From NCBI GenBank assembly GCA_000182565.2, contig KQ257464.1: a DNA stretch of 24,214 bases; one strand, given 5' to 3'. The notes under the pieces are model-generated. The model did not search any database, was not told the origin of the DNA, and worked only from the letters and a program-made list of their open reading frames with translations. Position 1 is the stretch's first letter, and the number at the start of each line of letters is the position of its first letter. Source of the stretch: Spizellomyces punctatus DAOM BR117 (Eukaryota). The position numbers and the translations under genes were made by a program. Shown here piece after piece: positions 2,726 through 24,214 of this stretch.

Positions 2726-3308
2726 CAATCGCAAATGTATGGTCGGTACTGTCGTTTAGCGCGTGCTTTACTGGCGGCAAAGGGACTGGAAGGAGAGAAA
2801 GGCCGCAAGACGGGCAAGTCCTTTGTGAGCGCATCAGGATGCGGTTAGGTGCTAGCGGGGCGAGTGTTGCGGCGAGAGCTCCCCTGTTTACACAATGCGC
2901 AAAGAGAAAGACAACTCCGCCAAGAACCCTAAAGACGCAAATGTGCACAACCCTATTTCCCTAGCCGACACCAAACCTCAGGTCAGAGGAGCGCTAATAG
3001 CGATGACACAATTTACTTGGTGCCCAATGCTTTCTCCCCTTTGCCCGCGTTTCTCCAGATCCATTTCGCTCGGGCGATTCCGACTGTCATAGAAAATGCA
3101 CGTGATTATATTGTTGCTATAGCAATGGTAAGCCCAGTCGCTTGTTTTTGCTCTGCAGCAAACTGCTGGAGGAGAGCAGCAGCGGGTAGGCGAGCAATGC
3201 ACCGGCTCCGCAGGTATTTGCGCAAAAGGCGATTACTGGCAAGGAATCAGTTTCTTTTCTCGCATTGTTTATTCAGTACAATGTTGCTTCTGCAGCCAAA
3301 ATAAATAT

Positions 3309-3822
3309 TCATTTCCTTCTGTTCTCTTCAATTAAGCGAATAGCTTCTGCAAAATGATATTCTAATACTCTTGTCTTCTCTTTCATCAAGAACGACAATC
3401 CGTGTAAATTCGTCCAGTCTGTCTCGTAATAGGAGCCTCCTCGACTGTGACTGATGTGTTTACCATTTGATGACCACACAGTTCGATGATCGTAATATCT
3501 TCTCCATACAGATTGGACTATCATATTCTGATTGCTGTACGGAACGTAAAATGCAGCCGGGTCTTCCTGCGTTGTCAACTCCAGCAGCTCTTTCGTATAC
3601 TCATCAGGCCATATACTAAGTGCCAGGGTTTGGAATGCGACGTTTACTGGGTTGCAATTGTGAGCACCTTCTGTCTCTCCAAAACAAGATGGATGGGAAC
3701 ACACCTAATTGCCGCATCTCCTTACTTGCGGTTTCCATAACCCGTAGAGTGTGCACGTTACAAAAGTTCAGAATGTGGATGATAATCTCATTTGGCAAGC
3801 GTTGACCGCTGTTCAGTGTCAT
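3309..3822 (-). CDS. Small F-box-like protein, 2 exons (3822-3705, 3646-3309)
   Basis: N-terminal LPNEIIIHILNFCNVHTLRVMETASKEMRQL is an F-box pattern. A 58-nt intron at 3704-3647 (GTGTGT...GCTCAC...CCCAG) joins ORFs 3616..3915 and 3309..3704 in frame (RQL-VNVAFQTL). An alternative start is ATG 3846. Confidence 0.65.
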
Positions 3823-5254
3823 TTTGCATAACGAACGTGAACCCATCAGATCGCATAGACATATAATGCTTTTAATCTTTTTGCCTGTTTCATCCGTGTG
3901 TTCCAACCGAGTCACTCCCCAGTATGAGAACTAAAGTCACCAAAGATTAGAATTGACCCATTTGAAGGACTAGATGCCAATCCTAATTATTAAAGTAAGT
4001 AAAAGAAAGTATGTGCAATAAATCACTCCTAGTTAACACGGTAACAAATACTAATAAATGAGTTAGGATTAAACATCGGCATTGGACATTTTTTTGACCA
4101 TATTTGCAGGACAAATTCAACATCTCTAAATCATCAGCTAGTAGCCCCATTCTTAATGGAACTACCACTGAAATCTTGCGAATTTTGGAAGGTAGTAAAA
4201 CATTGGCCGCCTAGGTAAAGTAAATCATTATAGTACAATCAATATAAAGAAAAAGTCTCAAATTTGGTCCTCTATAGTCCTCGATAGCGTCGATGCGACA
4301 TGCAAAGAGTAATAAGATGCACCGAATAATCATGACAATGAAGAAAAGGATGATCAGTATGTGATAGCAGAGTGGGGAATAAAACCCGATGAACCACGCC
4401 GCAGCTGGCACTCGGCTGGGAATGATATTACTTCATGGAAGGGCAGGATCTACCGGTTTGAAGAATACTTCAAATATCTGGCGATGGGAGGACCCTCATG
4501 TTGTTCCAATCACCCCAGACCAGTCAAGTCAGAATATCTGCTTAGCAAGATCCCATGCAAATAGATGATTAGAGAACCTGTGTGGCAGAAGAGCGATGTT
4601 GGCTCAGAGTCTGAAAAATCCGGGACTTTGCCCAGGTGCCTTTGACAGTTTTCCAGAGGCCGTGCGGACAGTGGTTAAACCCCAGCACTGCAGCTGGAGC
4701 CCATCGTACTCAAGGTGAGCTGGCGTTCCCACCAAAGTTGATGGCTGCAAGCAATCTTGAGAGTAGCCCATCGCCCAACCATGTTGAACCACTTTGATGA
4801 TAGCAGACTTTACGAGAATACTTTAGGAGCATCACAAGAGTGAGATTTCCGAGACCCAAGGCAGCTTAACGGGCTCTTTGTACGGTCATGTGACCATGTG
4901 CTTATGTCACTTCCGCAGATGAACCGATCACTGTTTTCCACCGATCTCCCTTCTGACTGCCGCCACCTCATTCCATATGTGCTCAGCTATTGTCCGCAAA
5001 CATATACGTATCAGTGACTTGATGCAGTGCGGTGGAGTGAAAAGAATAGGGCAATGGTGTTACTTGAGAGTTCTCACGGAGCGCGTGAGGGTGTGCATCC
5101 GCCGGGTGGTCATCATGTAGAAAATGTCATGAATGTGTTCTAATCTGTTCCTACGCTACATATAAGCTTGATACAATTCCATCCACTCGCAAACAACTCA
5201 TTCTAGTGTGGAAATAAATACGCTGGCTACTCTGGGTTTCAGGTGTCAGAAAAA

Positions 5255-6437
5255 TCAGAATGGGGGAATAATCTTGCCGGCTATCCTCCAATCCTCATCC
5301 AACTCAGGATTATCCAACCATCGCTCCATCACAATATACTCGGTGACATTCTTGATATCGTTCGGGTTGCCACCTACTAAGACATTATTCTTGTTGTAAA
5401 ACGCCACAGACTAGAGAAGAAGAAGCATCTCGTTTAGCTGACAGTGGAGTAACCTACCAATCAAACGAAGTTACCTGCTTCAAAGAGACTTTGACAGTGA
5501 CTTGGGCTAGATGGTACTGTGGTCCACCCTTCTCAAACTGCACTTTGACGGCTGCAATGTGCACGGTAGTTGGGTGTTCAAACTGACCGTGTGATTTCCA
5601 TTCGTATCTGCCCACCCTACTAGCGGCTTTCATGTCTGCATTCAAGTTCTAGTACAACATCATTTACGGTTCAGTGATTCAATATCTTTTGAGTCAATGA
5701 GGACGTTACACTTACAGCAAGCATGCTGTCCGTGACAAAACACCGCAATTCATCCTTGTCTCCTCTGTCAAGTAGTAAATGAGCCCTCCAAACGTCAAAA
5801 AAAAACGTGGGTTCAAGTATATACGCACTTGGCAAAAGCATGATTCATTGCAGTATACAATTCTTGGGCCTCATACGCAAAAGGTTTAGGTTTCCATCCC
5901 TTAATGTGCGTTCTCACTCGCCACGCACTAACAACGTCAAAGATATAAGAATCTTCCGCACCCAAAAACAGATCTGAATTGCTTATACCCACGAGATGAA
6001 AGATATAAATAGGGCTCGCAGCCGCCGTTTTGCATACTCCTTGCCTTCCTCTGACAGAAGAGGAGGCCTTTTTCCGGATGGGTAGGGTACAAACGGGTCT
6101 GAAGGGCACATGTCAAAAACGACACCTAAGCGACGGGACCGTAAATATCAACGTGTCAACTACCAGCGATATTCAAATCAACAGGTCGTCCACGCATAAG
6201 CTGTTGCTTTGCACTAGCGAATCTCAAGCCCAGTGGATGAAGAGAGGGTCCCAAAGTAGCCTGGGTTGTTGTTCGGTTCGCCTGAATCTTGCGTCTTACG
6301 TCGCTGGATGGGAAGTGTTGGATGTGGAGGTTACGTGCGGCAGGAAGTAGCGGCCGGAATGGATGAGACGGTACATTCCTGCCAAGTAAAGCATGACTGA
6401 GGCATCGCGGGGATATCCATATGTTCCGACGCAACAT
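5255..6437 (-). CDS. Mitochondrial Tim44-like domain protein (mL45/Mba1 family), multi-exon
   Basis: Arg-rich presequence MLRRNIWISPRCL. Exons read WKPKPFAYEAQELYTAMNHAFA, HLAQVTVKVSLKQ and SVAFYNKNNVLVGGNPNDIKNVTEYIVMERWLDNPELDEDWRIAGKIIPPF*, matching the mL45/Tim44 C-terminal pattern. GT-AG introns separate them. Confidence 0.8.
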
Positions 6438-6709
6438 GGTGAACAATCGTAGATCACTCAAGCTGAGAGGTCATTTCCAGCTGCTAAACTTGGTTCGGCG
6501 CGTTGCCAGGGCAACTAGCAGACAGGGACATTGTCGGGTTGGTCGTTTGGTTCGGCTCGTTCATTGCCGTCCCAAGAGTGCAAATGGAGACGATCCCAAG
6601 GGGTGTTGCCGAGGTTATCCCGTAGTATCAGCATCACATACTCTAACAAGCTCCTCAGGGGTGCTAGCTTATATCATGATAAATTTCGTGGACTCTTTCT
6701 TCTGCTTCA

Positions 6710-6849
6710 CAAGTAGTGATGCCGTAGGCTGAGCCGAGCCATTTCCTCAGCTTGGCTCCAGATCCGTACTTTTGACGGCTTCGGCTTCAGCTTGGCTCCA
6801 TAAGGTCAAGCCATGAACCGAGCCAGCCAGCCGTTGCATCACAACTCTG
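6710..6849. repeat. Possible degenerate MITE / small non-autonomous DNA transposon
   Basis: Imperfect inverted ends AGTAGTGATGC (6712-6722) and GCATCACAACT (6836-6846). Internal 14-bp direct repeat TCAGCTTGGCTCCA (6747, 6787) and several GAGCC/GGCTC motifs. No clear TSD. Confidence 0.4.
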
Positions 6850-7008
6850 GCTATCAGCAAAGTCATTCCTGTTTGCATCTTTCAAATCCTGACCTAATCA
6901 GTCACGTGCCAACGCGTTGCTTGCGCGCAGCATCCAAGGTCCAACGTTCTCCGCGTGCGCGAAAGTGCACATCCCCCTAAAAAGCAACACAATATAAAGA
7001 CTAACGGA

Positions 7009-7080
7009 GGCAGAATAGCCAAGTGGTTAAGCCGCAGACATGCGAACTCAACTATCCAGTGTTCGAATCCCGGGACAGGA
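7009..7080 (+). other. tRNA-derived sequence (pseudo-tRNA or SINE head)
   Basis: Pol III A-box TAGCCAAGTGGTTAAG (7016-7031) and B-box GTTCGAATCC (7061-7070) at tRNA spacing. The acceptor, anticodon and T stems do not pair properly. Confidence 0.55.
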
Positions 7081-7843
7081 GGACAAAGACTGATTGCTTG
7101 CGATAGTCGAGTGGGTCCCAATGAAGCTTTAAGAGCTGAGGGAGGGCTTTGGACAGGTAAGTTAATCAACAGGTAGGTTATTCTTTTGGATCAACCTAAT
7201 AAATGAGGGGTACTTACAAGTAGACTCTTTGCTTTCTGGTTGAATTATATTTCCTCACAAACTCGTTCACCACTGTGTATTTTCAAATCACAAGTACAGA
7301 CCAGGTCGACACTGCAACCAACTTGGCAACTCGATTGAGCCCCACAGACTATGGCTCATCGTTCTTGTAAGCTTTTATTCGATCCTGCTTTCAAGGCCAT
7401 GTCCTGAGGTTCTATCACAGTCCCTATGTCTACTTGTTGTTGTCGACGGCAGCTGCAGATGGCTGAATCATGGGTCAAGTCGAAGTCGTAAATGTTCCAA
7501 AAACTACTTTGCTTTCCAATGATATTTGGCCTCTCATTATGAAGGAAAACATGTCAAGACCGCACGTATATGGAGAGATTATCGCCCAGATCACCAAAGA
7601 ATTTGATCAATGTAATGCAGCGCGAAGATGATGAAGCGAAGCATAAGCACAGGAAGATAAATGTCTTTAGAGCTGGTCGACAAAGCATACATAGTAGCTG
7701 ATAGTTTGCAAGCATTGACGCAACCGTCAACGATGCTGTTTGTTGACCTTCATACGACTCACGTGTCAAATCGGCGATTAGCACAGCATTAAACCAACTG
7801 TTCCTCCACAACCCCATCTTGACATTGAACTTGCACAACAGCC

Positions 7844-8650
7844 ATGCTCCTTCAAGACGTCTGCCTATCGGCTCTCAAGATATGGTGGTTCTCATCCTCA
7901 CTTTCCCTGCGCCCCCCTACACCCACACCTACACCTCATCTTGCTTTAAATATTGTCTTGCTCGCTTGGGCCTGCGCATCCTGGTCAAAGGCTTCGCTGC
8001 TCCTCCAACAACGCGGTTGGGGTTCTGCAGAGGATGAACGAAGAGTGCTTGCTTGCTGGCACCTCGTCGTCGCGTACGGAGTTGTCTGGGGAGTCAACGG
8101 CGTAAGAATACCGGACGGTGGAAGGAAAGGCTTCATACCCGTTCTCGTCGGTGGGACGTTTGTGACTGTTGCGCTTGACGAGTTGATGTACCTGATACTC
8201 TCGCATACGGTATTGGGGCCAGTTGTTATGACAATACGAGGGTACAGCCCTCCGCCTGATGCCCATGATGAAGATTGCGTCGTTTGCTTGGGTGTTGGAC
8301 TGAACGACGAAAATACGACCGGCGCGCCCACCTTTGGAGCCTTACAAAGCTTCTGTAAAATTCATGCACACGTAGCACATATAGAATGCATGAGCAAATG
8401 GTTTAGGATGCGGAGATTCGGGAGGCGCTGTCCCGTTTGCCGAAGACCTCTACAGGTCATTGTTGTCGATGATCGGATGTTGATCAGGGAATTGGGTTGG
8501 TGGAAAGGAGCGCGAAAAGTCATAAAAGTTAGATGGAACTGGGGAATAGTTTTGGCAAGAGCCGGGGTTACGATTGGCTGTGTAATGGGTGTGCTGGCGG
8601 TTGTGCTGGCAAGAGCGCGGTGGATGAAGCAACGGACAAAACGTCTGTGA
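7844..8650 (+). CDS. Membrane protein with RING finger (putative E3 ubiquitin ligase)
   Basis: 268-aa ORF with several hydrophobic segments flanking CVVC...C-KIH-AH-VAHIEC-MSKW...CPVCR, a RING pattern. An upstream exon is possible. Confidence 0.75.
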   Translation: MLLQDVCLSALKIWWFSSSLSLRPPTPTPTPHLALNIVLLAWACASWSKASLLLQQRGWGSAEDERRVLACWHLVVAYGVVWGVNGVRIPDGGRKGFIPVLVGGTFVTVALDELMYLILSHTVLGPVVMTIRGYSPPPDAHDEDCVVCLGVGLNDENTTGAPTFGALQSFCKIHAHVAHIECMSKWFRMRRFGRRCPVCRRPLQVIVVDDRMLIRELGWWKGARKVIKVRWNWGIVLARAGVTIGCVMGVLAVVLARARWMKQRTKRL

Positions 8651-8791
8651 ATTGCTATTTGTCTATGTATATATAGCTGTACATATATGTACTGTTTTGA
8701 TCTCCCTCTTGTAAATACCGATCATTGTGTAATCTGTGCACCAAACTCTCATGGCAACGCTCCTATGTCGGTAATTCGGCAGCAATACTTT

Positions 8792-10087
<1,296 letters not shown>

Positions 10088-11702
10088 ATGCTTCGACAGT
10101 GCACAAGGCCTATACCTCGGTGGCGGACTGTATCTAACGTTCTATATGCTAGATGTCGTACTACCGCGCCTTGTCAGCCGATATCTCCCGTAAGTGCGAG
10201 GACTGGATGGGTCGGCTGTTTATATTCGACAGCGGCCGCTTCCCAAAGCCAGCCGACGACCGATGGTAGGAGCTTCTCTACTTACCCGTTATCAGGGCAT
10301 CTGCTAACAACTACTGCCTACCCAGGACACATTGAGATCCTTGGCCGCCTTCATCCAACAGACTCGGCGACAAATGTATCACCAACCATCGTATCCAAAA
10401 CCACACGACGACTCCATCTGCAACGCAATCATCCCATCAACATTCTCAAACGCCGCATTGAAAGCCATTTTAGGGACTATGCTGTCATGGACTCAATGGA
10501 CCCAGTAGTAACAGTTCATCAAAATTTTGACTCTCTCCTCTTTACGCCCGACCATCCGGGTCGTGCCGCCACCGATACGTACTACGTCAATACAAACACA
10601 GTCCTTCGCACTCATACAAGTGCCCATCAATCCGATGTACTAAAAACACGAAAGGCTGACGGGTACCTCCTTACAGCCGATGTCTACAGAAGGGACGAGA
10701 TTGATGTGAGCCATTACCCAGTGTTTCATCAAATGGAGGGAATCCGGACATTTGACAAGAAAAAAATTGAGGAGGAAGCGAAGGTGGATTCAGAGACAAG
10801 CGCAATACAAGGTGCTGTACTTTCAGAGTCAAATCCTATTCAGCCTGCACATACTACTCGCGAGGCACAGTTGGTGGACCTGCATTTACGGCATTCGTTG
10901 GAGGGGATGGTGAGGGATTTATTTAGAGAGGAGAAAGATTTGCAGATCAGGTGGATTGAAGCGTACTTTCCCTTTACGAGTCCGAGCTGGGAGATGGAAG
11001 TGTTTTATAGAGGAAACTGGCTGGAACTGTTGGGTTGCGGTGTCATGCAGCAAGAGATTTTGGATAAATCAGGTGCGCTTCCAAGTGTTCGCCAATCGTT
11101 AGGCAATGACTGAACCGATGATCACAAAACAGGCAACTCTGACCGTATTGGTTGGGCCTTTGGACTCGGTCTCGAACGTATCGCCATGGTCATGTTCGAC
11201 ATTCCCGATATTCGACTTTTCTGGTCAACCGATGATCGCTTCATTTCCCAATTCTCATCGGGCCAAATCGTCAAATTCCAACCCTTTTCCAAATACCCTG
11301 CGTGCTATAAAGATATCTCGTTCTGGTGTTCGGAAACGTTTCATGACAATGATTTTGCGGAAGTTGTTCGCGATGTTGCTGGGGATTTAGCGGAAAATGT
11401 CGAGTTGGTGCGTGTGATATTTGGCCTGTGAGGAATTAGATCCCCCTTGGGCATCGACTGAGCTATGGATTTTCTTAGATTGATCAATTCCAACATCCCA
11501 AAACTAAACGGACGAGCCGATGTTTTCGGATCAACTATCGGTCCATGGACAGGTGCGTTGACCTGCCATTGATAACCACCTTGATTGTGCTATTTGTAAT
11601 AAAGTGGCTGGATGCAGGACATTCACTAATGAAGAGGTGGATCGCATACAAGACCAAGTCCGCCAGGTTACCAAGGAACGATTGGGAGTGGAGTTGCGGT
11701 GA
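10088..11702 (+). CDS. MSF1: Mitochondrial phenylalanyl-tRNA synthetase, multi-exon
   Basis: Motifs [80 protein letters not shown] and the anticodon-binding [11 protein letters not shown]...INYRSMD. Presequence starts at ATG 10088; stop TGA at 11700-11702. Confidence 0.95.
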
Positions 11703-11961
11703 TGGAAACATAGTGTGTGGGAAAATAGAAATGTCAGTGCCACGGAGCATTGCAGCCAGTTGAATTAACCACATTTATTGTGAACCTCACGAAGATAAAC
11801 CAAAAAACGGGTCCAATACGTGCGGCAACGAATGGATTGAATATTCTGCAGTTGCTCCACCATTGAAAAACAGGTCCAATGCGCAGTTGTCATATTTCTA
11901 TATAAACCCGCCTTCTCTGCCCATTTCCCAGGTTTTCATCCATTTTTCTATTCCAATCATC

Positions 11962-12654
11962 ATGCCGCCAAAGAAAAAGCAAAAGCTTGAAAAACTTGAC
12001 AAACCCACCTTACATACCTGCAACAAAACTTTTTGCAAAAGCTTTCCTGCCAAATGAGATCTACCACCAACGGCTGCTAGATTACATTGCCATCATCCAT
12101 CAACTCACCGACCACACTTCCCACGTGCTGAAATTCTACATCCTATCTGCACCAACCTTTCCCACAGTAAATGAAGATACAATCGAAGCCATCCTGTATC
12201 TTCTCAACAAGGGGGAGGCTTGGCATCCAAGAAAGGAAGCAAAGAAGGCATGGCGGGATTGTTTGCTGCCATATGTTCAATGGTACTGCCACATCATCAG
12301 CTTCGTTCATCCAAATCTATGAGGCGAGCAGCAGTCAATCAATTACCTGACAGCAAGTATGATGATGAACCTGAAAGTCAATGTTCAAGAGCATTTCATG
12401 CAGATGCTCCTTCGATATATCAATCTGCCGCTCGACGTGAAGGGACAGAAGCAGCAACTGCCACTGAAAAGTGATGTGCGGAAAGCTTTCTTTACTCAGC
12501 TTCACTACTTAAAGTCAGTTTTTCTTTTTGATATCATGCCCGAGTCGCTGGATTTAACACCACTGGAGAGCAAGGTTCTTGAAGAGATTTGGTTGCTCAA
12601 TCTGCCTTTTCTTGTTGACAATCCACTCACCTACGCAGTTGTTGTGAATCCAAT
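11962..12654 (+). pseudogene. Fanzor1 (TnpB-derived RNA-guided nuclease), SpuFz1-like, N-terminal ~230 aa only; disrupted
   Basis: MPPKKKQKL..LDKPTLHTCNKT/FAKAFLPNE...EDTIEAILYLLNKGEAWHPRKEAKKAWRDCLLPYVQ...HPNL*GEQQSINYLT..NLKVNVQEHFMQMLLRYINL closely matches the N-terminus of S. punctatus Fanzor1 as I recall it (from memory, not searched). Frameshift near 12030, TGA at 12320, truncated by the LTR at 12655. RuvC and omegaRNA are not in the window. Confidence 0.88.
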
Positions 12655-13283: not shown

Positions 13284-14069
13284 CTACCATGATGCAACTG
13301 GATAGTCATCGTCAGCTTCAAAGCTGTCTTCATTGATCATCCAGATTATGGTAGCATGCCCCATGACATTTGCACAGAACCAAATTTGGTCAGTGGCTTC
13401 CGGAGCTGGGGTTCCAGGGGTCTTGGAACCGTTGGCTTGGGTTACATAAAGGGCTGTGAATGTCTCCGCGGCCCTTTTCAAGTTAACTGCTCGAAAGTGG
13501 TAATAGGCATGCTCCCGATGTTTGGGACGGAGCTGCTCTTCTGTGGTTTCAGCTGCGTTGGCTAGCTTTAGCAATACTGCTCTCGTGGCTTCGATGGCTA
13601 TCTCCATGAAATCATGGGCTTCACGATTGGGCCAGAGGGTGAAGCGGGTCATTTTGGGGTTTCCAGCCACATGTTGAGGGACTCCAGCGTCAAGCCAGGC
13701 AGTGCAGGGTACGTCCTGTAATCTCTTCCCCATCTTTTTTGCATCAGCGATGATACCGACAGCTGCTTGACCGCCATCGGAAGCCCTACTGTAGGGCTCT
13801 GCTATATGCATTGTGAGGGGCTGGCTCATGGCATACGGCTTCGAAGCCCCGTCTACCACCCAATCTTCACCACGATAGTGTTTGAGGGGTTTGTTTGGGT
13901 CTTTGAACAACTCACGAATCCAAACTTCAACCCAGGTGGCCATAGCTGCCCCGAGCCACTCGATAGAGTTCTCGGCTCCGAAGGCATTGCTTCCTTCTGC
14001 CCAGGGGTAGCCTTCCTCAAGGGTAGAGAGGATACTGACTCCTCATTGTCCTCGGATATTGGTGGTCAT
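13284..14069 (-). pseudogene. Additional ~260-aa ORF of unknown function between integrase and 3' LTR
   Basis: ATG 14069 (MTTNIRGQ*), one TGA at 14045-14043, then open to TAG 13284. Same frame as the integrase/chromodomain. Confidence 0.6.
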
Positions 14070-14429
14070 GGTGTCGGAAATGAAAGTTTGTGTTTTGGTG
14101 TCAATAGAAAAGGTTTGCAAAGCAGAGTAGGTCTGTAAGGGAGATAGGTCATAGGTAGTTGAAGAAGAAAAAAGAGGGGGAGCATGCAGGGGTGTCCTTT
14201 TAAGGTCGTCGCCAGCTGATTTTGACAGCTTGGATGCACATAAGTGTGATCGGGAGGCTTGGTGTGGCATTCTCGACTGGTGAGGTAAGCCATGCAAAAC
14301 TGGTTTTCTTTCTGGTGAGAGGGCATGATTATCATGTGAGCTATTGTCTGGATAAACCGCGAAGCATTGGTGGTCAGAAGCATAAGCCATATCTTCTGGG
14401 GCATCGCCTTCAAGGCTGACTACCAAAGA

Positions 14430-15499
14430 GTCCTCTACTAGTGTGCTAGTGGGAGCTCTGGATCTCCAGTACTCTTCTAAGGCTTCAGAAGCCTCTGTTA
14501 GGTCTTCCTCTGATTCCCATGTATCCTCATGGGGTGGATATCCGGCCCAACATATTCAAAATTGACACTTTCCGTGCCTGGTTCAATGGTCTACTATCGC
14601 TGCTACAGTGCAAAATAAGCCAATGGCAATTGCTTCCACTTCGAACTCGCCTTCTGAAGCATCGGAATCCTCCGTTTGAGCTTCCGCAACCTTTCCCTCA
14701 GTTTCGGTGTCGACAGGCTTCTGGTACGGACATAATTTCAATATGTGAAACCATGGGTGAAGTCATCTCATCTTGTCTGGCAGTTTTAACTTGTAGTTGT
14801 TGTGGAGAGGGTTACAGTCAATCACCGTGACTGGTCCCAGCCATTTCGGAGCAATCTTGGACTCATACCCTGCTAGGTTTTTCATGCTCAGAAGCACCTT
14901 ATCTCCTCTCCGGAACTCCAAATATCATTGTGATAAATCATAATATCTTTTCTGCAAATCCTGGGCTTCGATCATCAGATCTCGGATAAGGATGTTTAGG
15001 TCACCGAGGTGTTTACAGAGCTCTTCCGCATCTGCATTTCTGGTTTCTGATGGCCTTTTGATGATATCCACCAGTGGATTGTGGGGCTCATAGCCTAGGT
15101 CCATTCTGAATCACGTCATTTTTGTCGCCTCATGTACTGTATCGTTGATAATGAATTCTGCAACCAGAAGAAAGGTGTCCCAGTCATCTAATCGGGTGTT
15201 GACCATTGTGGTAAGGACCTACAAGACCATTGCGTTGTCTCTCTCTGATTGTCCATCACCTTGAGGGTGGTAGGCTGTGGTGAGCTCTTGATTAATCTTT
15301 AGGTTTTTGCAGACCTCCTGCCAAAATCGACTCATAAACTTGGGGTCATGGTCCGAGATAATAGTCTCCGGAATGCCATGCAATGGGACGTAGCATTCTA
15401 TAAAGAGTTCCGCAACCTGAATAGCTGTCGCGGTGCTCTTGAGGGGCCATACGTGGATCCTCTTTGAGCATTTACATGCTATTAGCCAAAAGGCGTCAT
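14430..15499 (-). pseudogene. Retrotransposon integrase (rve core, GPY/F region) plus chromodomain; degenerate
   Basis: LHGIPETIISDHDPKFMSRFW, TTAYHPQGDGQSER, KIAPKWLGP, HPWFHI and EFEVEAI..VDH*..WAGYPPHEDTWESEEDL. Several in-frame stops. Confidence 0.92.
14596..14633. mobile_element. 28-bp TG...CA insertion (14601-14628) with 5-bp target duplication ATCGC/ATTGC; probable footprint of the virus-like element
   Basis: Adds 11 codons inside the chromodomain; removing 33 nt restores EVEAIVDH. Its first 26 nt are identical to 15500-15525. Confidence 0.8.
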
Positions 15500-15545
15500 T
15501 GCTACAGTGCAAAATAAGCCAATGGGCTTATTTTGCACTGTAGCA
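15500..15545. repeat. Terminal palindrome: perfect 21-bp arms with 4-nt spacer
   Basis: TGCTACAGTGCAAAATAAGCC-AATG-GGCTTATTTTGCACTGTAGCA. Confidence 0.95.
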
Positions 15546-15721
15546 GCCGGCTTATAATTATGATATACCCGGCTTATAATATGATATACCCGGTTTATAA
15601 ATAAGCCATATTGCATTGGAGTGTTTCAAAATGTTTCAAAGTGTTTCGAGTCTTCCAAGGTGTTTGCCCAATGCATTGGAGTGTTTCAAAGTGTTTTGAG
15701 TCTTCCAAGGTGTTTGTCCAA
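15546..15721. repeat. Subterminal tandem repeats
   Basis: CCGGCTTATAA(T)TATGATATAC about 2.5 times (15547-15600), then two ~50-60 bp units starting TGCATTGGAGTGTTTCAAA (15612, 15672) built from GTGTTT-containing subrepeats. Confidence 0.85.
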
Positions 15722-15899
15722 GTCTGGGACTATTGATGAAGGGATGATATGCAGTATAGTGCACTTACCCATAAAATTTTACGCATCTAATATTTCACAT
15801 GTCCAAACTCCACCTAATTCAAAGTCAACACTGGTTCTAACTTGACATTTGCTTCTTCTCAAGACTCCATGATATCACTTCATCTTGGGACTCCATCTC

Positions 15900-16251
15900 T
15901 CAGCCTTCGACATCATAGCTTGTGGACTCGTCTGTGGACTCGTCTCTCCACATATCTCTTCCAACAAGGATAGCATCGAAACTTGTATCCTTTCTGTCCA
16001 ATTCTTCACAATTGAAACCTCCTTCCACAATCCATGCAGATTTGCTCTAGACTTTGGTGTCCATTGTTCCCTGAAAGCAACCATTCCAATATCCATCTCG
16101 GCACCAGCACACAATCATTTGCATAGTCCATTGTTAATTGCAGTTGTATATGGAATCGTTTTTGAAAAGAAGGCTTCGAGCTGGGGAGGGACTGGGGGGA
16201 GACTGGCGACCCTCTTTTATAAACGGAAAAGGAACTCTCCCATCTTATCAA
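15900..16251 (-). pseudogene. Degenerate zinc-ribbon ORF
   Basis: Reading through TGA 16008-16006 gives CMDCGRRFQL*RIGQKGYKFRCYPCWKRY. Boundaries are uncertain. Confidence 0.45.
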
Positions 16252-16412
16252 TAAGATGGCCTTCTTTTATGTCCCATCTGATCCGTATGTTTCCTTATGT
16301 TTCCTTTGAAGAATAATGATTCTATCAATACTTTCCCTCATATTTCATGTGACCTTTCCATCGATAGTAACCTTTCGCAAAAAAGGGAAACTAATGGAGA
16401 TGCTGGAAAAAA

Positions 16413-16744
16413 TCCTAGAACTAGGGCTTTTTCACAACATGCCCATTTTCGCTCACTGCTCCACAAAAACAGCTCTAGAATCCTAGCCCTTTTTTTGCCC
16501 GGTCTTCTCTACTTTTCAAAAAAATTTCATTTTTTTTTTTCAAAATTGAAATTTGATTCCATTTGTGAGATTTGACCCGGGAAAATGGGCTAGAATGGCT
16601 AGGATTCTTGTCTTTCGGTATGTAGGGTATATTATACTACTAATAAATAAAAATATCTATTATTATATGTTAAATTATACTACATAAATGTAGAGAGAAA
16701 AAAACCTAGCCATCGAAAAACTAGGACGAGCTAGGATGTACTAG
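16413..16744. repeat. 332-bp non-coding direct repeat, copy 1 (candidate replication origin)
   Basis: Colinear with 20341-20672. Contains 10 CTAG motifs, inverted pairs AGAATCCTAGCC/GGCTAGGATTCT (16477, 16597) and GCCCATTTTC/GAAAATGGGC (16441, 16581), and AT-rich tracts. Confidence 0.9.
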
Positions 16745-16828
16745 GAATTCTTTTTCCTTTCACTGCTCTAGCTTCTTACTGCTACTTTTTCTACCATCTC
16801 TACCTTCAATTGTTCTCGGTTATACCCC

Positions 16829-17428
16829 CTAGCGCCTTTTGTAATGTTTTATGCAGTAGATTTTCCATGCTGGCTCTGTTAAGTGGATTCTTTTCTTGCA
16901 GCCTTCCTGTGCACAATCTCTGGTTTTCCTCTGACTTGTCCTTGCAGAACACGTGGTGGTAATAGCCATCCCTTTGCTTTTCTGCCAGTCTGGTAGACAC
17001 ATTGTCTTCCATGTACGCTCTTTTTCATCGGAACAATGAAAATATTGCTCACATACTGTACATTTTAGATTCTGGGAATGACAAAAATCACATACTTCAT
17101 TGTTGAGCACACCTTCTTTCTTATACCGTTTTTCACACAGTAAACATTTCCGCGTCATATTGACAAGTTCCTGTCTCATCTTGGCTGCCCTTTCCACCTC
17201 TTCATCTGGGAAAAACCACTTTATACAGCAGTTGCCAATGACAAGTACCTTTCCGGTATAGATGTTCTGGACAAAACAGTTCTCTTTGATGGGATGTGTA
17301 CAAAGGCAGCAGTTTTCCTTGTCTAAGTGAAAACTCTCAACCTTCCATTCCCAAATGGCTTCCTCAAATAAATCGCTCAAAGATTCATTCAGTAGTTCCC
17401 TTGTGAATGTATTGAAATATGATGTCAT
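16829..17428 (-). CDS. Cys-rich multi-zinc-finger protein of large-DNA-virus type
   Basis: 199 aa. EW...CCLCTHPIKENCFVQNIYTGKVLVIGNCCIKWF resembles a C-x-C-x-H...N-x-x-TG...G-x-x-C domain common in giant virus and phage hypothetical proteins, followed by several CxxC pairs. Confidence 0.7.
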   Translation of the reverse strand: MTSYFNTFTRELLNESLSDLFEEAIWEWKVESFHLDKENCCLCTHPIKENCFVQNIYTGKVLVIGNCCIKWFFPDEEVERAAKMRQELVNMTRKCLLCEKRYKKEGVLNNEVCDFCHSQNLKCTVCEQYFHCSDEKERTWKTMCLPDWQKSKGMAITTTCSARTSQRKTRDCAQEGCKKRIHLTEPAWKIYCIKHYKRR

Positions 17429-17468
17429 GCGTGTTCAATATACTTACCACTGTTTATTGTCTATATCT

Positions 17469-17675
17469 TTAAATGGCCGTTTTGTCTGTTTTTGGTACCC
17501 TACTTATTGTTATAAAATCATGCCACAAGGTTCTCTTGTCGCCCTTGACCAACTTTCTAACCATTAGGTGACATAATGATAGGTCTTTGGCGAGTCTCCT
17601 TATCGATGGTGCGTGGATCGAGGTCTCATTACCGAATCGGTTCACTGTGGCAATGTAGTCAAATTTCGAATGCAT
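17469..17675 (-). CDS. Small basic hypothetical protein, possibly HTH-like
   Basis: 68-aa ATG ORF, co-oriented with the zinc-finger gene and preceded by the TACTTAAA motif. SIRRLAKDLSLCHLMVRKLVKG is HTH-like. Confidence 0.45.
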   Translation of the reverse strand: MHSKFDYIATVNRFGNETSIHAPSIRRLAKDLSLCHLMVRKLVKGDKRTLWHDFITISRVPKTDKTAI

Positions 17676-17825
17676 TAGTGGTATGTTGTTTTACTATACT
17701 ATGAGGCAAATCATTTAAGTAGTGTCTTTTTTTTCATCACATTTGTCGAGTTTTTCTGGAACAAAAAAAAGCTACTTAAATACATACGTCCGTGTGTTAT
17801 ACAGATATATCACCGAATTCAAACC

Positions 17826-20327
17826 ATGCCACAAACACTGCTTTTCCAAACTGCCAAGAAAATGAAGCGTGCTAATCCTTCATTCAATCCTATCCCCGCA
17901 TCTGTCGAGGACAAATGTCCTTTAGGCAAGTGGAGTGGTCCTTCATACCTGTTCAAAAGAGATTTTCCTAAACATGAACAATGGCAACCGGATTGCAATC
18001 TCAGTTTACTGGTATCTGATGACTATATTGTTGTGGATGTTGACGCAAAGCCACCTGCGCAATGATCCAAAAGTAAAATCTATAGTGAAGCCCTCGGAAC
18101 AGTCGACTTTGCAGAACTGGTTGAGCAAAATGAACCTTTGCCCACTACACTCTCACTCACCACACCCAGTGGAGGAAAACACTTTTACTTTTCTTTGAGT
18201 GGTAAGGATGGCGAAAGTATCTTGAAAAATTGGACAGCATGCATGACGCGGGAAGATGGCTCTGTTATCGCAGTTGACATTCGGACAAAAGGCGGTTACG
18301 TAATGGTTCTGCCCAGCAAGAAGGGATGTCAACGCTATGAATGGGACACAAAGGAGGGTTTCAAGGTGCCAATGGCTCCTTTGCCAAACTGGATTCTTAA
18401 GAACATTCTTGATGCACATGGCAAACATCCTCAACATTTTGAGGCTCAGGAGTTTACAGAATCGCCGCACTTAAACAATGAAGTCAGCAATGAAGACATT
18501 GAAATGTTCAAAAAAAGCGAGTTCTGGAAAGACTGTTTCTCCATCTCTTCAAGCCCAGATCACAACAATCTGTACATTATCACAGCAAGTGCGCCCTATG
18601 ATTGCTCAATTTGTGACAGACGGCATGTTAACAATACCAATCATCCTTTCCTTGTCCGAAATGGGTCTACGCTTCAATTTGTCTGTAGACCAGGGAAAGG
18701 GTTCTCAAGATGCATCTCAAAAAACTATGAGCAGATGTATCACGACTTTCATCCACTTACAAAAGAACTAGTCGAGGGAATGGATGTCACCAACCGTGCT
18801 GTTTCTGAGACCCTTCATAAAGAACTCAAGGATTGAGTCTTTCCTACAGAAAAACATAACAAATGGCTCATGTATGATCAGAGTATCGGGATCTGGCGTG
18901 AAGAAGACAAGAATGTCATTATGCATCCGATCCTTGATGACTATGTTCATCGTTTAAAGGAACTTGCTCTAATTTGTAATAAACTAAGCCAAGATGAAGA
19001 GGACGTATGGAGTGAATGCCAGGGGATCTGTAATTCTTTAGTCTATTCCATGTCTATGGTCAAGAAAAAGAATGATCACTTGGCCTCATTCTTTGAACTC
19101 GTTAGGGATACACGAAAGGACGAACTGTTTAATCAAAAGAAACACTTGCTACACTGTGTAAATGGAGTCTACGATCTCAAAAAGGGAAAGTTTCACAAGG
19201 CAAAGCCAAGTGACTATTCAAAAATGTCTACGAAGATCACCTACCTCGACTATGATGAACATCCTCAGGAGAAAAAAGCACTTGTTGAAAAGTTTTTAAA
19301 TGACTTCACACTGGATAATGAAGAACATAAAAAGTTCCTGTTGAAAGCACTGTCCTCGGCTCTAAGCAGCAATAATGAAGATCAGCAGTTTTATTTCTTT
19401 GATGGGAGTGGCAATAACGCTAAATCGACACTCATTAAATTAATGAAGAAGGTACTAGGAGATTACGGCACTATGCTACCGACAGCACAAGTACCAAAAC
19501 CTAACCTCAATGCTCAGGCTGCTTCTCCATCCTTGATGGCGTTGTTGTTCAAACGTGGTGGCTTTTTAACCAAACTGGAGGAAAAAACACTATACACTGA
19601 GTTTTTAAAGATGACGGCTGGAGGTGATTCAACAAGCGGTCAACAGTTGCACAACGAACAAAGAGAAATTGATCTGTGGGTCAAGATATTCATTGCTGTG
19701 AATGATCTACTGCAGATCCTCGATAAGACTAATGGCTTTTGGCAAAAGGTCATAGTTATCCCATGTAATGCTCGTTTTGTTCACAATCCAGACCCTGAGA
19801 AGCCTGAAGAAAGACCACTCGTTGATGGGTTCACTAAGCAGATACTTGATTGTGCCAATACTTTTCTTGCACTCCTGGTCAAGACTTACATCACTGATTA
19901 CAAAACCGAGGGCGTGAAGAAAAATGTTCATCCAGATGATATATTGGAACGGGTTGAAAAATACAGAGTATCTCAGAACATCCCATTGCAGTTTATTAGC
20001 AATATGATCGAGCCTGCAGATGATACAAATGCTGTACTCGTGAAGACATTAGATATGTCTTTCACCGAATTTTGCAAAGATAAGGCCTTTACAAAGACAC
20101 CACAACTTGTTAGACAGGTGTATGAACTCATGGATTCAATGTTCCCACCATCAAACTCGAAACGACAGATATGGATCGAGAAGAAAAATCTCAGAGGCTG
20201 GAAAGGTGCTATGTTGAAAAAGGATGAAGAAAGTGAGGAAGAAAGTGAGGAAGAGAAAGAAGAGATAGCCATATCATATGAAGAGGTCGAAAAAGATTTC
20301 CTACATTCTCGGTGGGCTGGGGCATGA
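17826..20327 (+). pseudogene. Bifunctional primase-polymerase (AEP Prim-Pol) fused to D5-like SF3 helicase, 833 codons, two internal TGA
   Basis: ORFs 17826, 18138 and 18870 share one frame, broken by TGA at 18063 and 18834. Prim-Pol motifs: IVVDVD, TTPSGGKHFYF, DIRTKGGYV, APLPNWI. Zn-like CSIC..H. D5_N motif NGVYDL. Walker A GSGNNAKST, then GGD and VIPCNARF. Confidence 0.92.
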
Positions 20328-20340
20328 AACAAATTGGATT

Positions 20341-20672
20341 TCCTAGAACTAGGGCTTTTTCAGGAGATCGCCATTTTCACTCGCCACTCTGCAAAAACAG
20401 CTCTAGAATCCTAGCCCTTTTTTTGCCCGGTCTTCTCTACTTTTCAAAAAAAATTCATTTTTGAAATTAAAAATTGAAAATTGAAACCATTTGTGAGATT
20501 TGATGCCGGAAAATGGGCTAGAATGGCTAGGATTCTTGTCTTTCGGTATGTAGGGTATACTATACTACTAATAAATAAAAAATATTCATTCTTATATGTA
20601 TATTATACTACATACATGTAGAGAGAGAAATTCCTAGCCTTTGAAAAACTAGAACAAGCTAGGACGAACTAG
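20341..20672. repeat. 332-bp non-coding direct repeat, copy 2
   Basis: Starts 13 nt after the primase-helicase stop. Shares long identical blocks with copy 1, e.g. GGAAAATGGGCTAGAATGGCTAGGATTCTTGTCTTTCGGTATGTAGGGTATA. Confidence 0.9.
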
Positions 20673-20713
20673 AGGATGTCAGGCTTGTTGACAGAAATAA
20701 ACTACAGTGGTGA

Positions 20714-20890
20714 TCATTCGCTTTCATCTCCACTATCTGCAAGGATGTTAAATCTCGGAAGTTGGTTCGCACATTCTTCCAACCACTTTCTGTAACAGTT
20801 GCTGCACCTAGGACAACACCTGATCCAAGGAATCATTTTATGACATCCAAGACATTCACAACATTCACGTTGTTGGCGGTTTGAATTCAT
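20714..20890 (-). CDS. 58-aa zinc-ribbon microprotein
   Basis: Below the ORF-track cutoff: MNSNRQQRECCECLGCHKMIPWIRCCPRCSNCYRKWLEECANQLPRFNILADSGDESE*. TACTTAAA lies about 40 nt upstream. Confidence 0.6.
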   Translation of the reverse strand: MNSNRQQRECCECLGCHKMIPWIRCCPRCSNCYRKWLEECANQLPRFNILADSGDESE

Positions 20891-21115
20891 ATTTTCAAGG
20901 TTTACTTCAAGTTAATATGCTTTTTTTTAAGTACAACATTTTTCAGGGTGCAACTGCCAGAAGAAAGTGCATCTTATCGATAAGATTATGTGACCTGATC
21001 TTCTTTGTTACTTATTTTATCACAATACTAAGTAAGCTATTCAGCAAAGTCATGTACTAAACTGATCACATAAAAAGCCAGAAGAAATGCAGCAGTACAT
21101 CTCAACTTAGTTTAG

Positions 21116-22213
21116 ATGGAAGCCATGCCATCACAAGCATCTACAAACCTTGCTGCAAGTACATCTCAACCCGCAAAGCCTAATCGACATTCCACCTCTC
21201 ACCGTCCCACAAAGCCTAAGCAACTCGATGCATCTCAAAAATTAATTGTTGATTTTTTCACGGAATTATGCATTGATGCTCCTCTGCCATACCAAATGAG
21301 CGCTTGTAATGAAATGCTGATGAAACTGTCCCATGTGGTGAAAAATGGAGAAACCTTAGACATGGACACTGCGCATTTTGCAGTCCGTGAAACAAAGTGC
21401 CTTAACGAATTGTTGAAAGAGCAGGAAACGTACATATCAAAGATGGATCAGTGGCATGGCGAAGCAGTGGTTCAGATTCAGAATTTGGCGGCTGAGAATG
21501 AAGAATATAAAAAACAAATACGCGATTTGGAAGATCGCCTCTGTAATGCCGAAGCCAAACGTATGACCATAGAAGTACCCGAGGACTTCAGGAAAAGAAA
21601 ACAAACAAAAGTTATAAATTTCGGCAAATACGACACAATAAAACCATGGATCGAACATATAGAGAATCACAATGCATGTTTCGATGTAATTGATGAGGTG
21701 AAAATATCAATCGCAAAGGTGTGCAGTATCATCAATCAGGAGTCATTGTTCAAAGAACTGCACAATCTGCAAAATGCCAAAAGCATGCAGGTTTTCCTGA
21801 AAGCTTTATGTTACGTCTGCTATTACAACTTCTATCTGACCAAAGACAATGATGCTAGATGATGGAATAAGATGGTCGATATGCTTGGTGCTGGAGTTCT
21901 TCCAGTTTTTTGTGAGAAACCAAGTTTAGTAAAGATAGCAGATTGTGACGCTGATTTACATCTGTTGGGTGAATGGTATGAAGAACAAAGAAATCTGGCA
22001 AAAAATCCGATGAACCAAAAGAAGCTTCCGATGGCTGTAATGGGGTTTACATGGCTTCAGTTTATCAGGAACATGAAAGCTCATAAGAAAGAGGAAGCTC
22101 TACAGCTTCTTCCCGCTCTACGTGGAAAGTTAGCCGAGGAAAAACTAGCTCAATCCAAGAGTTGGGAAGCTTCTAGGGAAAGGCATAGTGATATTCCCCA
22201 AGGGGGAATATAA
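21116..22213 (+). pseudogene. Hypothetical ~365-aa protein with coiled coil, one internal TGA
   Basis: ORFs 21116..21862 and 21872..22213 are in the same frame, separated by TGA 21860. Coiled-coil-like stretch IQNLAAENEEYKKQIRDLEDRL. Confidence 0.65.
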
Positions 22214-22283
22214 TCAGGTTATAACCCTTACATAGAAATACAAAAAGTTTCTATCGATTCCATTTGCCTCGTTCCATGTGTTG

Positions 22284-22811
22284 TTAGGTCTTTGTAACTG
22301 GCTCTCCACAGTATTCTACAACGATTCTGTAAATATCTTTCAATTGATACCCTGTTCCTTTTGATACAAATTTGTTCATACTGGCAGCCAAAGCCTGTTC
22401 CTCATACTGACGCTCCATGAATCCGGACACTCCTATTATAGGCGTTTGATCTAGATTGTGTTCCCTCTCATACGGTCTTATTTCATGTGTTACTTCCACT
22501 CCATTTTTGTAAGGCATGTCGATATCAACAAAAATGATATTAAATCATTGCTTTTTAAAGAGTTCAACGGCCTCAATACTGTCAGATGCTGTGAATACCG
22601 TAACATTAGGTTCTCTCTTCCAGAACCTCGTAAACATTGATCTTAAAACAGGTTCATCTTCCGCTAACATTATATTGATCGTCTTACCATCAGGTGGTGG
22701 TGTGGGTGATTTCCCAGAAGCATTGGCAAGAATCCGGTACAGTTGTTTGACTAGAGGAAAAATCTTATCTACAATAGATGATTCGGCATCAAAGACAACA
22801 TGTTCTGGCAT
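22284..22811 (-). pseudogene. Stand-alone response-regulator receiver (CheY-like REC) domain protein, one internal TGA
   Basis: Two in-frame ORFs give NIMLAEDEPVLR...ASDSIEAVELFKKQ*FNIIFVDIDMPYKNGVEVTHEIR...TPIIGVSG...MNKFVSK. The acidic pair, phospho-acceptor Asp, Ser and Lys are all present. Confidence 0.9.
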
Positions 22812-22912
22812 AGGTCGATAGATGGAGAAAATCTATTGATAAAACATGAAATAAAATGTCTATATAAGAGGTAAACCGGCTTCTATTCTTAGAATACAGA
22901 TCAGCCCTGAAA

Positions 22913-23956
22913 ATGCAACAAGACCACCAATCCATTGATGCCAAGTCGGCTCTATATGAAATGCTACATGCCATCCTTGACAGGATTCAGCAGTCACCCA
23001 ACACCAAGAAACAGGATAAATCGCGTCTAAATCAACTCAAAGGCAACAATCTTCTTTCCTTGTTCCAAACACCTGAGATACTCATTAGCAGGATCAAGGA
23101 AAAATGGACAAATGAGCATACATATAACAATTATATCAAATTGGTGTCAAAAATAGCACGTAACACTACAAGGGCTGAAAAGGCAATGATCCTTCATCTA
23201 GCAGAGGATGCAATGGACGACCTTGATAGTCATTTNNNNNNNNNNNNNNNNNNNNNNNNNNNNNNNNNNNNNNNNNNNNNNNNNNNNNNNNNNNNNNNNN
23301 NNNNNNNNNNNNNNNNNNNNNNNNNNNNNNNNNNNAAAAATGAAGCAGCATCCCAAGAGATGACCCAGGAAGATATCGCCAATTATGTCCCTTACAGCGA
23401 ACTCTTAGCAGGATTGAAAGTCGCTTTGACATTCATCAATGAGGGAAATATAGTGGAGCATCAATTTCTAATTGCTCTTGGGATGAACCTGGATGCAGAT
23501 AAAATTCGTAGATGCGATATTTTCAAAGCGATGATTAGCGAAGACGCTAATGTTATGGTGAACAACGAAGGGAAAACTGTCTTCATCCAAAAATGCAACA
23601 AGACTGGTGAAAAGAATGTCCTCATTCAGATGGGAAACCTCATTCAGCCATATGTAAACATGTTAGCAAACGTTAGAAAGGCCAATGGACAGGATTGTCT
23701 TTTTCTAAAACCTGATGGAAGTATTCCAACCGATGCCTGGTATAGCGATGAATTTGGTAATGCTATGGAATGAATGTTTGGAAAGCGTGTAACACAGAAA
23801 CGCCTTCGAATTTCAGTGGGGATGCATCTTTCTGAAACGGATAATGGAGATCATGCTTATCAGAAGGAAATCAAACATAGGATGGGTCATACCTATGCTG
23901 TTCATCAGTGCTATTACAATCTGTTCAAGTCATTTGTAGAACAGCCTAGGAATTAG
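22913..23956 (+). pseudogene. Tyrosine recombinase (phage-integrase fold), spanning an assembly gap, one internal TGA
   Basis: Ordered catalytic pattern IRRCD (R), NKT (K), LFLKPDG, KRLRIS (H-x-x-R variant), MGHT (H) and CYY (Y). TGA at 23771 is followed in frame by ORF 23774..23956. Confidence 0.8.
23236..23335. other. Assembly gap (100 N)
   Basis: Run of N; true length and reading frame across it are unknown. Confidence 0.99.
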
Positions 23957-24214
23957 TGACTGTTTTCATAATCATTTACTGCATCTCTTGCATTATGTAT
24001 AAGTTCACTTCTCAGCTCCCAAGTTGACTGATCACGGTCATATCCTCTCCATAATACTTCATATTCTACTACTTGTCTTCCACCGACTCGACGTGTTCTT
24101 TTATCTAACAATGCTTCAACTTCATACTCACCTTCTGGTACTTCCTCTTCATCGTCTTCAATCTCAGGTTCAACTTGCGGAGCCTCCCCAGCGGCATCCT
24201 CTTTAGGAATTAGA
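23953..24214 (-). CDS. C-terminal chromodomain of a gene entering from the right, probably an rve-type integrase
   Basis: Not in the ORF track: ...EDDEEEVPEGEYEVEALLDKRTRRVGGRQVVEYEVLWRGYDRDQSTWELRSELIHNARDAVNDYENSH*. Its stop overlaps the recombinase stop (TTAG, 23953-23956). Integrase identity is inferred. Confidence 0.8.
   Translation of the reverse strand, partial: LIPKEDAAGEAPQVEPEIEDDEEEVPEGEYEVEALLDKRTRRVGGRQVVEYEVLWRGYDRDQSTWELRSELIHNARDAVNDYENSH

Follow-up and report, generated by a model that had tools for sequence, protein, structure and literature searches.

A receiver-domain pseudogene, probably truncated from a hybrid-kinase-like protein, in a virus-like repeat of Spizellomyces punctatus

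We have analysed a receiver (REC) ORF of the chytrid Spizellomyces punctatus DAOM BR117 in a window of 24,214 nt, the whole stretch of DNA under study (contig KQ257464.1, GenBank assembly GCA_000182565.2). Most likely, this ORF is a receiver fragment that is truncated, nonsense-mutated and carried by a virus-like repeat which is methylated and present in multiple copies. The fragment would derive from the REC at the C-terminus of proteins of ~450 aa, a family whose fold is histidine-kinase-like and which has no conserved phospho-accepting His, and would have shed everything upstream of a Pro-rich linker. In the window copy, codon 89 would have been CGA (Arg) before deamination of methylated CpG changed it into TGA. 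The same deamination would have broken the adjacent recombinase-like gene and, probably, also the helicase gene and a 365-codon ORF. The repeat that hosts the fragment would be a multi-copy, low-GC, CpG-depleted element of Polinton-like-virus type, equipped with Prim-Pol/D5 helicase and recombinase-like genes, in which the receiver fragment appears to be passive cargo without present function.

RESULTS

The receiver ORF carries a premature stop codon

The REC-only ORF (22284..22811, minus strand) comprises 175 codons followed by a TAA stop. It is matched by the Pfam family Response_reg (PF00072) with 66.8 bits, compared to a cut-off (gathering score) of 30.2, and with an E-value of 2.4e-18; the match spans residues 47-152, on profile positions 1-100 of 111. 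The initial annotation, made from the sequence, had proposed a receiver domain at this place. This was borne out both by the Pfam score and by the presence in the translation of the segment that it had quoted, EIRPYEREH...TPIIGVSG. The acceptor-site set is entirely kept, with the acidic pair E51/D52, the acceptor D96, S129 and K151 aligning with the invariant or near-invariant columns E324, D325, D369, S402 and K424 of 18 relatives. No HisKA or HATPase_c domain was detected by Pfam on the REC polypeptide, either in the REC ORF or in the neighbouring ORFs.

The domain had also been described as complete, which does not apply to the window copy since its frame is not open. An in-frame TGA at codon 89 (22545-22547, minus strand) splits the REC frame into ORFs of 88 aa and 77 aa. 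It is located between the approach to beta3 and the acceptor Asp. With TGA at codon 89 the window copy makes no receiver, and it is a pseudogene with a premature TGA. Other elements of the initial description were found as announced. The short N-terminal extension is about 41 residues long, Pro-rich at its end (22689..22811, minus strand) and without any detectable relative. The ORF is transcribed divergently from the neighbour gene at 22913-23956 (plus strand), with 101 bp between the two starts, where about 100 bp had been given. Downstream of the extension, the stretch 22293..22688 (minus strand) is a homologue of the receiver found at the C-terminus of the ~450-aa proteins, being 73% identical to residues 315-446 of the family member P0009.

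The receiver and a family of ~450-aa hybrid-kinase-like proteins

A HMMER scan of 1.84 billion representatives with REC returned 75,166 matches at E<=0.001, among which 13 were at E<=1e-30. Paralogues in S. punctatus are 86-91% identical to the window sequences. After the S. punctatus paralogue P0002 (SPPG_07595), the nearest relatives are proteins of 404-467 aa which carry REC at their very C-terminus. REC identity to these long relatives ranges from 40 to 73%, with 72-73% for P0009, 60% for P0010 and 54% for P0013. By BLASTP, residues 42-173 of the window REC align with residues 315-446 of P0009 at 73% identity and nothing upstream aligns. In tblastn searches of the window with 18/18 family members, matches were confined to 22293-22730 and none occurred outside REC. 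Since no family member matches the window beyond REC, the window ORF is a truncated derivative composed of a linker remnant and the receiver.

We further examined the architecture of the long relatives. Response_reg alone was significant by Pfam in 10/10 relatives tested (8 of them of ~400-460 aa), the extra PDE8A_N match of P0011, a 182-aa fragment, being weak and below cut-off. An 18-sequence alignment revealed that the family conserves a coiled coil at the N-terminus, a domain in the middle and a Pro-rich linker, with no invariant His in the first 300 residues. Tyr35 is invariant across the family. The AlphaFold model built with this 18-sequence alignment reached a mean pLDDT of 79. In Foldseek searches, the full-length model matched the hybrid kinase ShkA (E 5.8e-9) and its N-terminal part (DHp+CA-like) matched the kinase cores of RetS, WalK, GacS, DivL and HprS. 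The best matches of the receiver were Candida Sln1, GacS D1, yeast Sln1 and Ssk1, with a target-normalised TM of 0.83 for 8phx. As judged by these models, the ~450-aa proteins look like an undescribed hybrid pseudo-kinase family, in which a receiver would be joined to a kinase-like fold that is devoid of a conserved His.

In a PDB profile search of REC, the top ranks were occupied by Chaetomium HK3 (8phn, E 6.5e-25), Arabidopsis AHK5, yeast SSK1 and SLN1; other matches included 4euk, 5kbx_B and 2r25_B. The resemblance to receivers of fungal hybrid histidine kinases, which had been noticed from the sequence, therefore holds, with Sln1, Chaetomium HKs and SSK1 among the nearest solved relatives.

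A phylogeny including hybrid kinases and CheY-type proteins had been proposed as a check on this origin. In our tree of 46 receiver domains, the two S. punctatus RECs pair at 99/95 and fall inside the family clade (98/84), apart from other receivers, as sisters to P0009+P0010 (93/87). REC thus nests in the clade of the hybrid-kinase-like family and is not a relative of CheY-class proteins. These results support the descent of REC from a hybrid-kinase-like protein family, and the suggested origin as a captured host domain is plausible. Short database matches behave in the tree as fragments of full-length proteins, as the REC of P0003 is identical to that of P0163, and P0004 and P0012 group with P0164. 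A P0009-seeded search recovered six more full-length family members, none of them from NCBI's S. punctatus proteome. The full-length members sit on contigs of 2.8-372 kb.

The window REC can thereby be compared with three types of receivers. It shares the same C-terminal end with the unnamed ~450-aa family (P0009, P0010, P0013, P0161-P0164 and others) but lacks the coiled-coil, DHp-like and CA-like part (~300 aa) that the family has. The eukaryotic hybrid-kinase and Ssk1 receivers (Sln1 of yeast and Candida, Chaetomium HK3/HK6, Arabidopsis AHK5/CKI1) carry the same D-D-D-S/T-K acceptor site; in contrast to them, the window REC is free of a kinase core, is only ~20-30% identical and contains a premature stop. 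Like the single-domain response regulators CheY and DivK, it is a stand-alone receiver of ~130 aa with a short extension, whereas it represents a truncated eukaryotic multi-domain protein.

The comparison with P0002 also concerns the annotation of this paralogue. P0002 is devoid of residues 42-75 of the REC ORF. In the window, an in-frame GT...AG pair at 22591-22692 (minus strand) would give the exact P0002 junction by removal of 102 nt. The 102 nt missing from P0002 encode beta1-alpha1-beta2 together with the acidic pair, and are conserved in frame in 18/18 relatives. The 102-nt intron is probably an annotation artefact, and we flag the gene model of SPPG_07595 as a probable error.

A virus-like element around the receiver ORF

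The GC content falls from ~44-53% in the first 15 kb of the window to 35-42% from ~15.5 kb to its end. The low-GC part includes a gene for a Prim-Pol and D5-type SF3 helicase (17823..20327, plus strand), interrupted by TGA at 18063-18065 and 18834-18836. Its product was recognized by Pfam (Prim-Pol 59.7 bits, D5_N 39.5 bits) and by PHROG as a DNA primase (E 8.8e-41), and its language-model neighbours are viral D5/SF3 helicase clusters. A coiled-coil ORF of 365 codons (21116..22213, plus strand), convergent with REC, carries a TGA at 21860-21862. Two Cys-rich ORFs without family match are found on the minus strand, one of 199 aa (16829..17428) and one of 58 aa (20714-20890) with CxxC-type spacing. 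This spacing is shared by both, and they may be zinc-binding proteins of the element.

A repeat search identified a direct repeat of ~330 nt, with a left copy at 16413..16744 and a right copy at 20341..20672 (both plus strand), 85-90% identical and with a spacing of 3928. The two copies bracket the Cys-rich 199-aa ORF and the primase-helicase gene. The pair could mean that two copies of the element are joined in tandem, or that a regulatory block is repeated. At the right border, a C-terminal chromodomain ORF (23953..24213, minus strand; Pfam 49.5 bits) runs off the window and overlaps the recombinase-like gene by 3 nt at the 3′ end of the latter. This ORF could encode the C-terminal part of an integrase, either of Polinton type or from a retroelement.

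On the other side, a remnant of a chromovirus-type retroelement (13284-15527, minus strand) with an rve core, a Tf2-type SH3 and a chromodomain contains six in-frame TGA. It is cut off at 15527, where the low-GC element starts. A word of 26 nt occurs at 14601, again at 15500, and in inverted form at 15522. Farther left lie host-like ORFs with ~50% GC which, by eye, resemble a long helical-repeat (PPR-like) protein (2-2734, minus strand), a membrane protein with a RING-like Cys/His cluster (7844-8650, plus strand) and a phenylalanyl-tRNA-synthetase-like protein (10067-11113, plus strand).

No Pfam or PHROG match to capsid, penton or packaging ATPase was obtained among the larger scanned ORFs of 16829-24214, and the element may continue past the window. 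Neither terminal inverted repeats nor a target-site duplication were found in the window: inverted pairs were short and weak, the long repeat is direct, and the window stops before the right end of the element.

Bellas and Sommaruga 2021 (PMC7805220) describe a Polinton-like virus integrated in S. punctatus, as well as a virus group named after it. A Polinton-like virus of this species also figures in bioRxiv 10.1101/2023.10.16.562556 and 10.64898/2026.06.19.733378. The element under study resembles the S. punctatus group of Polinton-like viruses (PMC7805220) both by its host species and by its gene set of helicase-primase and putative tyrosine recombinase; it differs in that no capsid, ATPase or chitinase gene and no terminal inverted repeat are visible in the window. 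Membership of the element in the Polinton-like viruses is likely, and we take the repeat to be an endogenised Polinton-like virus.

The recombinase-like neighbour

The gene facing REC (22913..23956, plus strand) is a recombinase-like gene of Polinton-like-virus type. It carries a TGA at 23771-23773 and includes an assembly gap of 100 N at 23236-23335. An intact paralogue of 333 aa, P0008 (SPPG_08458), is annotated. No significant match was observed in Pfam, NCBIfam, PHROG and PDB sequences with either the window copy or P0008, and the single-sequence AlphaFold prediction of P0008 was a failed model (pLDDT 35). A language-model search with P0008 gave a likeness of 0.98 to wholly (100%) viral clusters bearing the label Preplasmiviricota. 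Among these matches, 29/30 had no common Pfam family and 1/30 had PF00589 on 16% of its members. A R...KxxR...H...Y pattern was read by eye near the C-terminus. The gene had been presented earlier as a tyrosine recombinase. The language-model likeness and the motif read by eye point weakly in this direction, with no profile or fold match to join them, and we consider it a putative tyrosine recombinase.

Copies of the receiver and their expression

DNA reads with the same species label span all of 16400-24214, with 986 reads placed, 641 of which are >=99% alike. Summed depth was ~4-8 over 16400-20836 and 22403-24214, and ~1-2.5 over 20837-22402. The helicase block and the REC-recombinase block may thus each be present several times, bearing in mind that ChIP read depth is a poor gauge of copy number.

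Two assembled contigs were informative. A contig of 314 nt covering 22395-22708 shows 7 differences to the window and is thus about 98% alike. In as much of 22395-22708 as the gene model of P0002 keeps, 7 residues of P0002 differ from those of the window. If the contig corresponds to the P0002 locus, as we suppose, there would be no synonymous change between both copies in this part. The other contig, of 1234 nt, is 97% alike over 22817-23455 and has 58 letters in place of the N gap; its sequence left of 22817 resembles nothing in the stretch. Since it diverges at this point, at least one recombinase copy has no adjoining REC. The 101-bp divergent spacer (22812..22912) thus contains the point, 22817, at which the paralogous contig stops matching. 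This break, which precedes the REC start codon by 5 nt, was seen in contigs from two runs of one sample. This position looks like a module junction between repeat copies.

As for the possibility that REC is present in this copy only, at least two REC copies occur in the species. RNA reads are almost absent: 52 were placed out of 26.4 million records, and depth in the REC bins was <=0.15 per strand (one run with the same species label, in one condition, ~6% sampled).

We also searched for relatives outside the species. When metagenomes were scanned with the REC alignment, 143 relatives at 80 loci were retained, all of them generic receivers at 21-37% identity; no member of the ~450-aa family was recovered, and the contigs of P0003 and P0004 were missed as well. 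In 2.9 million viral contigs, the REC alignment gave 7 matches at 21-28% identity and no close relative. With the full-length family alignment, 0 relatives were retained among 288 pattern matches in the viral contigs. Single-protein queries, which reach close relatives only, returned 0 matches there for both the recombinase paralogue and the helicase.

Internal stop codons and CpG decay

Reading TGA as X, which joins neighbouring ORFs, reveals five internal TGA and zero internal TAA or TAG in the frames of the element. Two TGA are located in the primase-helicase gene and one each in the 365-codon ORF, in REC and in the recombinase-like gene. At REC codon 89, relatives carry Arg (P0002 and P0003) or Lys (P0004), and the TGA site of the recombinase-like gene is Arg in its intact paralogue P0008. 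In the DNA run X16 (same species label), CGA was present in 8/10 reads at 22547 and in 5/6 reads at 23771. Some of the CGA-carrying DNA reads are otherwise identical to the window.

The CpG observed/expected ratio is 0.48-0.68 over 15528-23956, compared to 0.76-1.05 in the host part 1-12000; it is 0.52 in the adjacent retroelement remnant. Deamination of CpG can yield a single stop codon, TGA, from CGA. Because relatives carry Arg and the element is CpG-depleted, the internal stops are attributable to CGA>TGA decay and not to recoding.

The same tendency was observed between copies. Among the 12 amino-acid differences found between REC and P0002 in 140 aligned codons, 7 are single transitions with a CpG lost in the window and 1 is the reverse. 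With the recombinase-like gene and its annotated paralogue, CpG-loss transitions in the window account for 9/16 amino-acid differences, with 0 reverse. At the sequence level, the differences between REC copies track CpG decay with no sign of constraint, which suggests neutrality. According to PMC12695648, 5mC in Spizellomyces is found on transposons alone. We infer that 5mC drove these mutations. RIP was also considered as a cause of mutation and was rejected by reasoning, as it would be expected to produce TAA and TAG stops, none of which was seen.

DISCUSSION

Our results favour a decayed receiver fragment carried by a virus-like repeat, and other explanations were weighed against it. All five internal stops of the element frames are TGA, with no TAA or TAG, as would be seen if TGA was read as an amino acid (Trp, Sec or by read-through) in the element or in the organism; all the genes would then be intact. 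Yet, at the two TGA sites that could be compared, relatives have Arg instead of Trp or Cys, other copies have CGA at those same bases, and the CpG-deamination pattern is seen throughout the window. Moreover, the host ORF of 911 aa at 2-2734 is without any TGA, and the window contains zero tRNA genes, Rfam and tRNA scans of its whole length having found nothing. Such recoding is hardly credible. It is also quite unlikely that a host gene for a ~450-aa protein was cut at ~22817 by a recombinase-bearing element and left REC as its 3′ stump, so that REC would not be a cargo of this element. The similarity between copies does stop at 22817, only 5 nt ahead of the start codon of REC, two thirds of the parent protein are absent from the N-terminal side, and no full-length member of the family was recovered among the annotated proteins of S. 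punctatus. Against this, REC is element-like in composition (39% GC and a CpG ratio of 0.68, whereas the host part 1-12000 has 44-51% GC and 0.76-1.05), its other flank consists of more element-like, TGA-broken ORFs, and it exists in at least two copies that are about 98% alike.

A working viral decoy is the reading closest to the initial annotation, in which the receiver would sense or drain the host phosphorelay. Intact copies of the SPPG_07595 type would take a phosphoryl group from a host HPt or compete with the ~450-aa family and modulate host signalling or the activity of the element, the window copy being a decayed member of a functional gene family. Several observations fit: the acceptor-site residues E51/D52, D96, S129 and K151 are kept, CGA predominates among the DNA reads that cover the stop site, the species has two or more copies of REC, REC is still 73% identical to P0009 although the rest of the protein is lost, and the receiver is of the Sln1/Ssk1 type, which docks on Ypd1. 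However, the 12 amino-acid differences in 140 aligned codons follow CpG decay, and the 7 nucleotide differences of the 314-nt contig (provided that it is the P0002 locus) equal 7 amino-acid differences with no synonymous change. RNA is nearly absent, one recombinase copy is without REC, the short database matches are fragments of full-length proteins so that no REC-only relative appears elsewhere, and 2.9 million viral contigs contain no close relative. We therefore judge a working decoy rather unlikely. As to the window copy itself, the proposal that it senses or drains the phosphorelay is not supported, as it is a pseudogene limited to the last third of its parent family with almost no RNA. 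Likewise, nothing links REC to excision, reactivation or stress, to which a role in the element had been tied.

With the decayed fragment as the preferred reading, the status of the other copies deserves separate mention. Since the acceptor residues are intact and most DNA reads have CGA, an intact 175-codon paralogue probably exists and could function. In a specific form of this idea, intact copies would be a virus-borne single-domain receiver drawn from a hybrid pseudo-kinase and serve an endogenous chytrid Polinton-like virus as a phosphorelay decoy. They would receive phosphate from a host Ypd1-type HPt or titrate the partner of the ~450-aa family. We hold this to be decidedly doubtful. 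In a bolder variant, the whole ~450-aa His-less kinase-like family would belong to viruses of zoosporic fungi, either Polinton-like or giant ones.

The initial annotation also stated that no such cargo was known in this class of element. For the Polinton-like viruses this agrees with our literature search, as no paper in the library searched joined 'Polinton-like' with 'response regulator'. It does not extend to the integrated viruses of brown algae, where such genes are known. According to PMC6324907, two-component genes occur in an integrated eukaryotic virus, in the EsV-1-like elements of Ectocarpus, and the hybrid kinases of the phaeovirus EsV-1 and their Ectocarpus copies resemble the present case as two-component genes of an integrating, transcriptionally silent dsDNA virus. 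They differ as full hybrid kinases in a giant virus, compared to a receiver-only stump in a small fungal element. The phaeovirus genome is about 300 kb in size.

Taken together, these results make the locus a clean example of 5mC-driven CGA>TGA decay in an endogenous virus-like repeat of an early-diverging fungus, and a caution that internal stops which are all TGA need not imply recoding. They also point to an undescribed family of ~450-aa proteins with a predicted kinase-like fold, no conserved His and a receiver. If the decoy was true, no two-component gene would have been described before this receiver in the supergroup of Polinton-like viruses. If intact copies are active, small integrating fungal viruses would tap the His-Asp phosphorelay, as giant viruses of brown algae may do via their own hybrid kinases.
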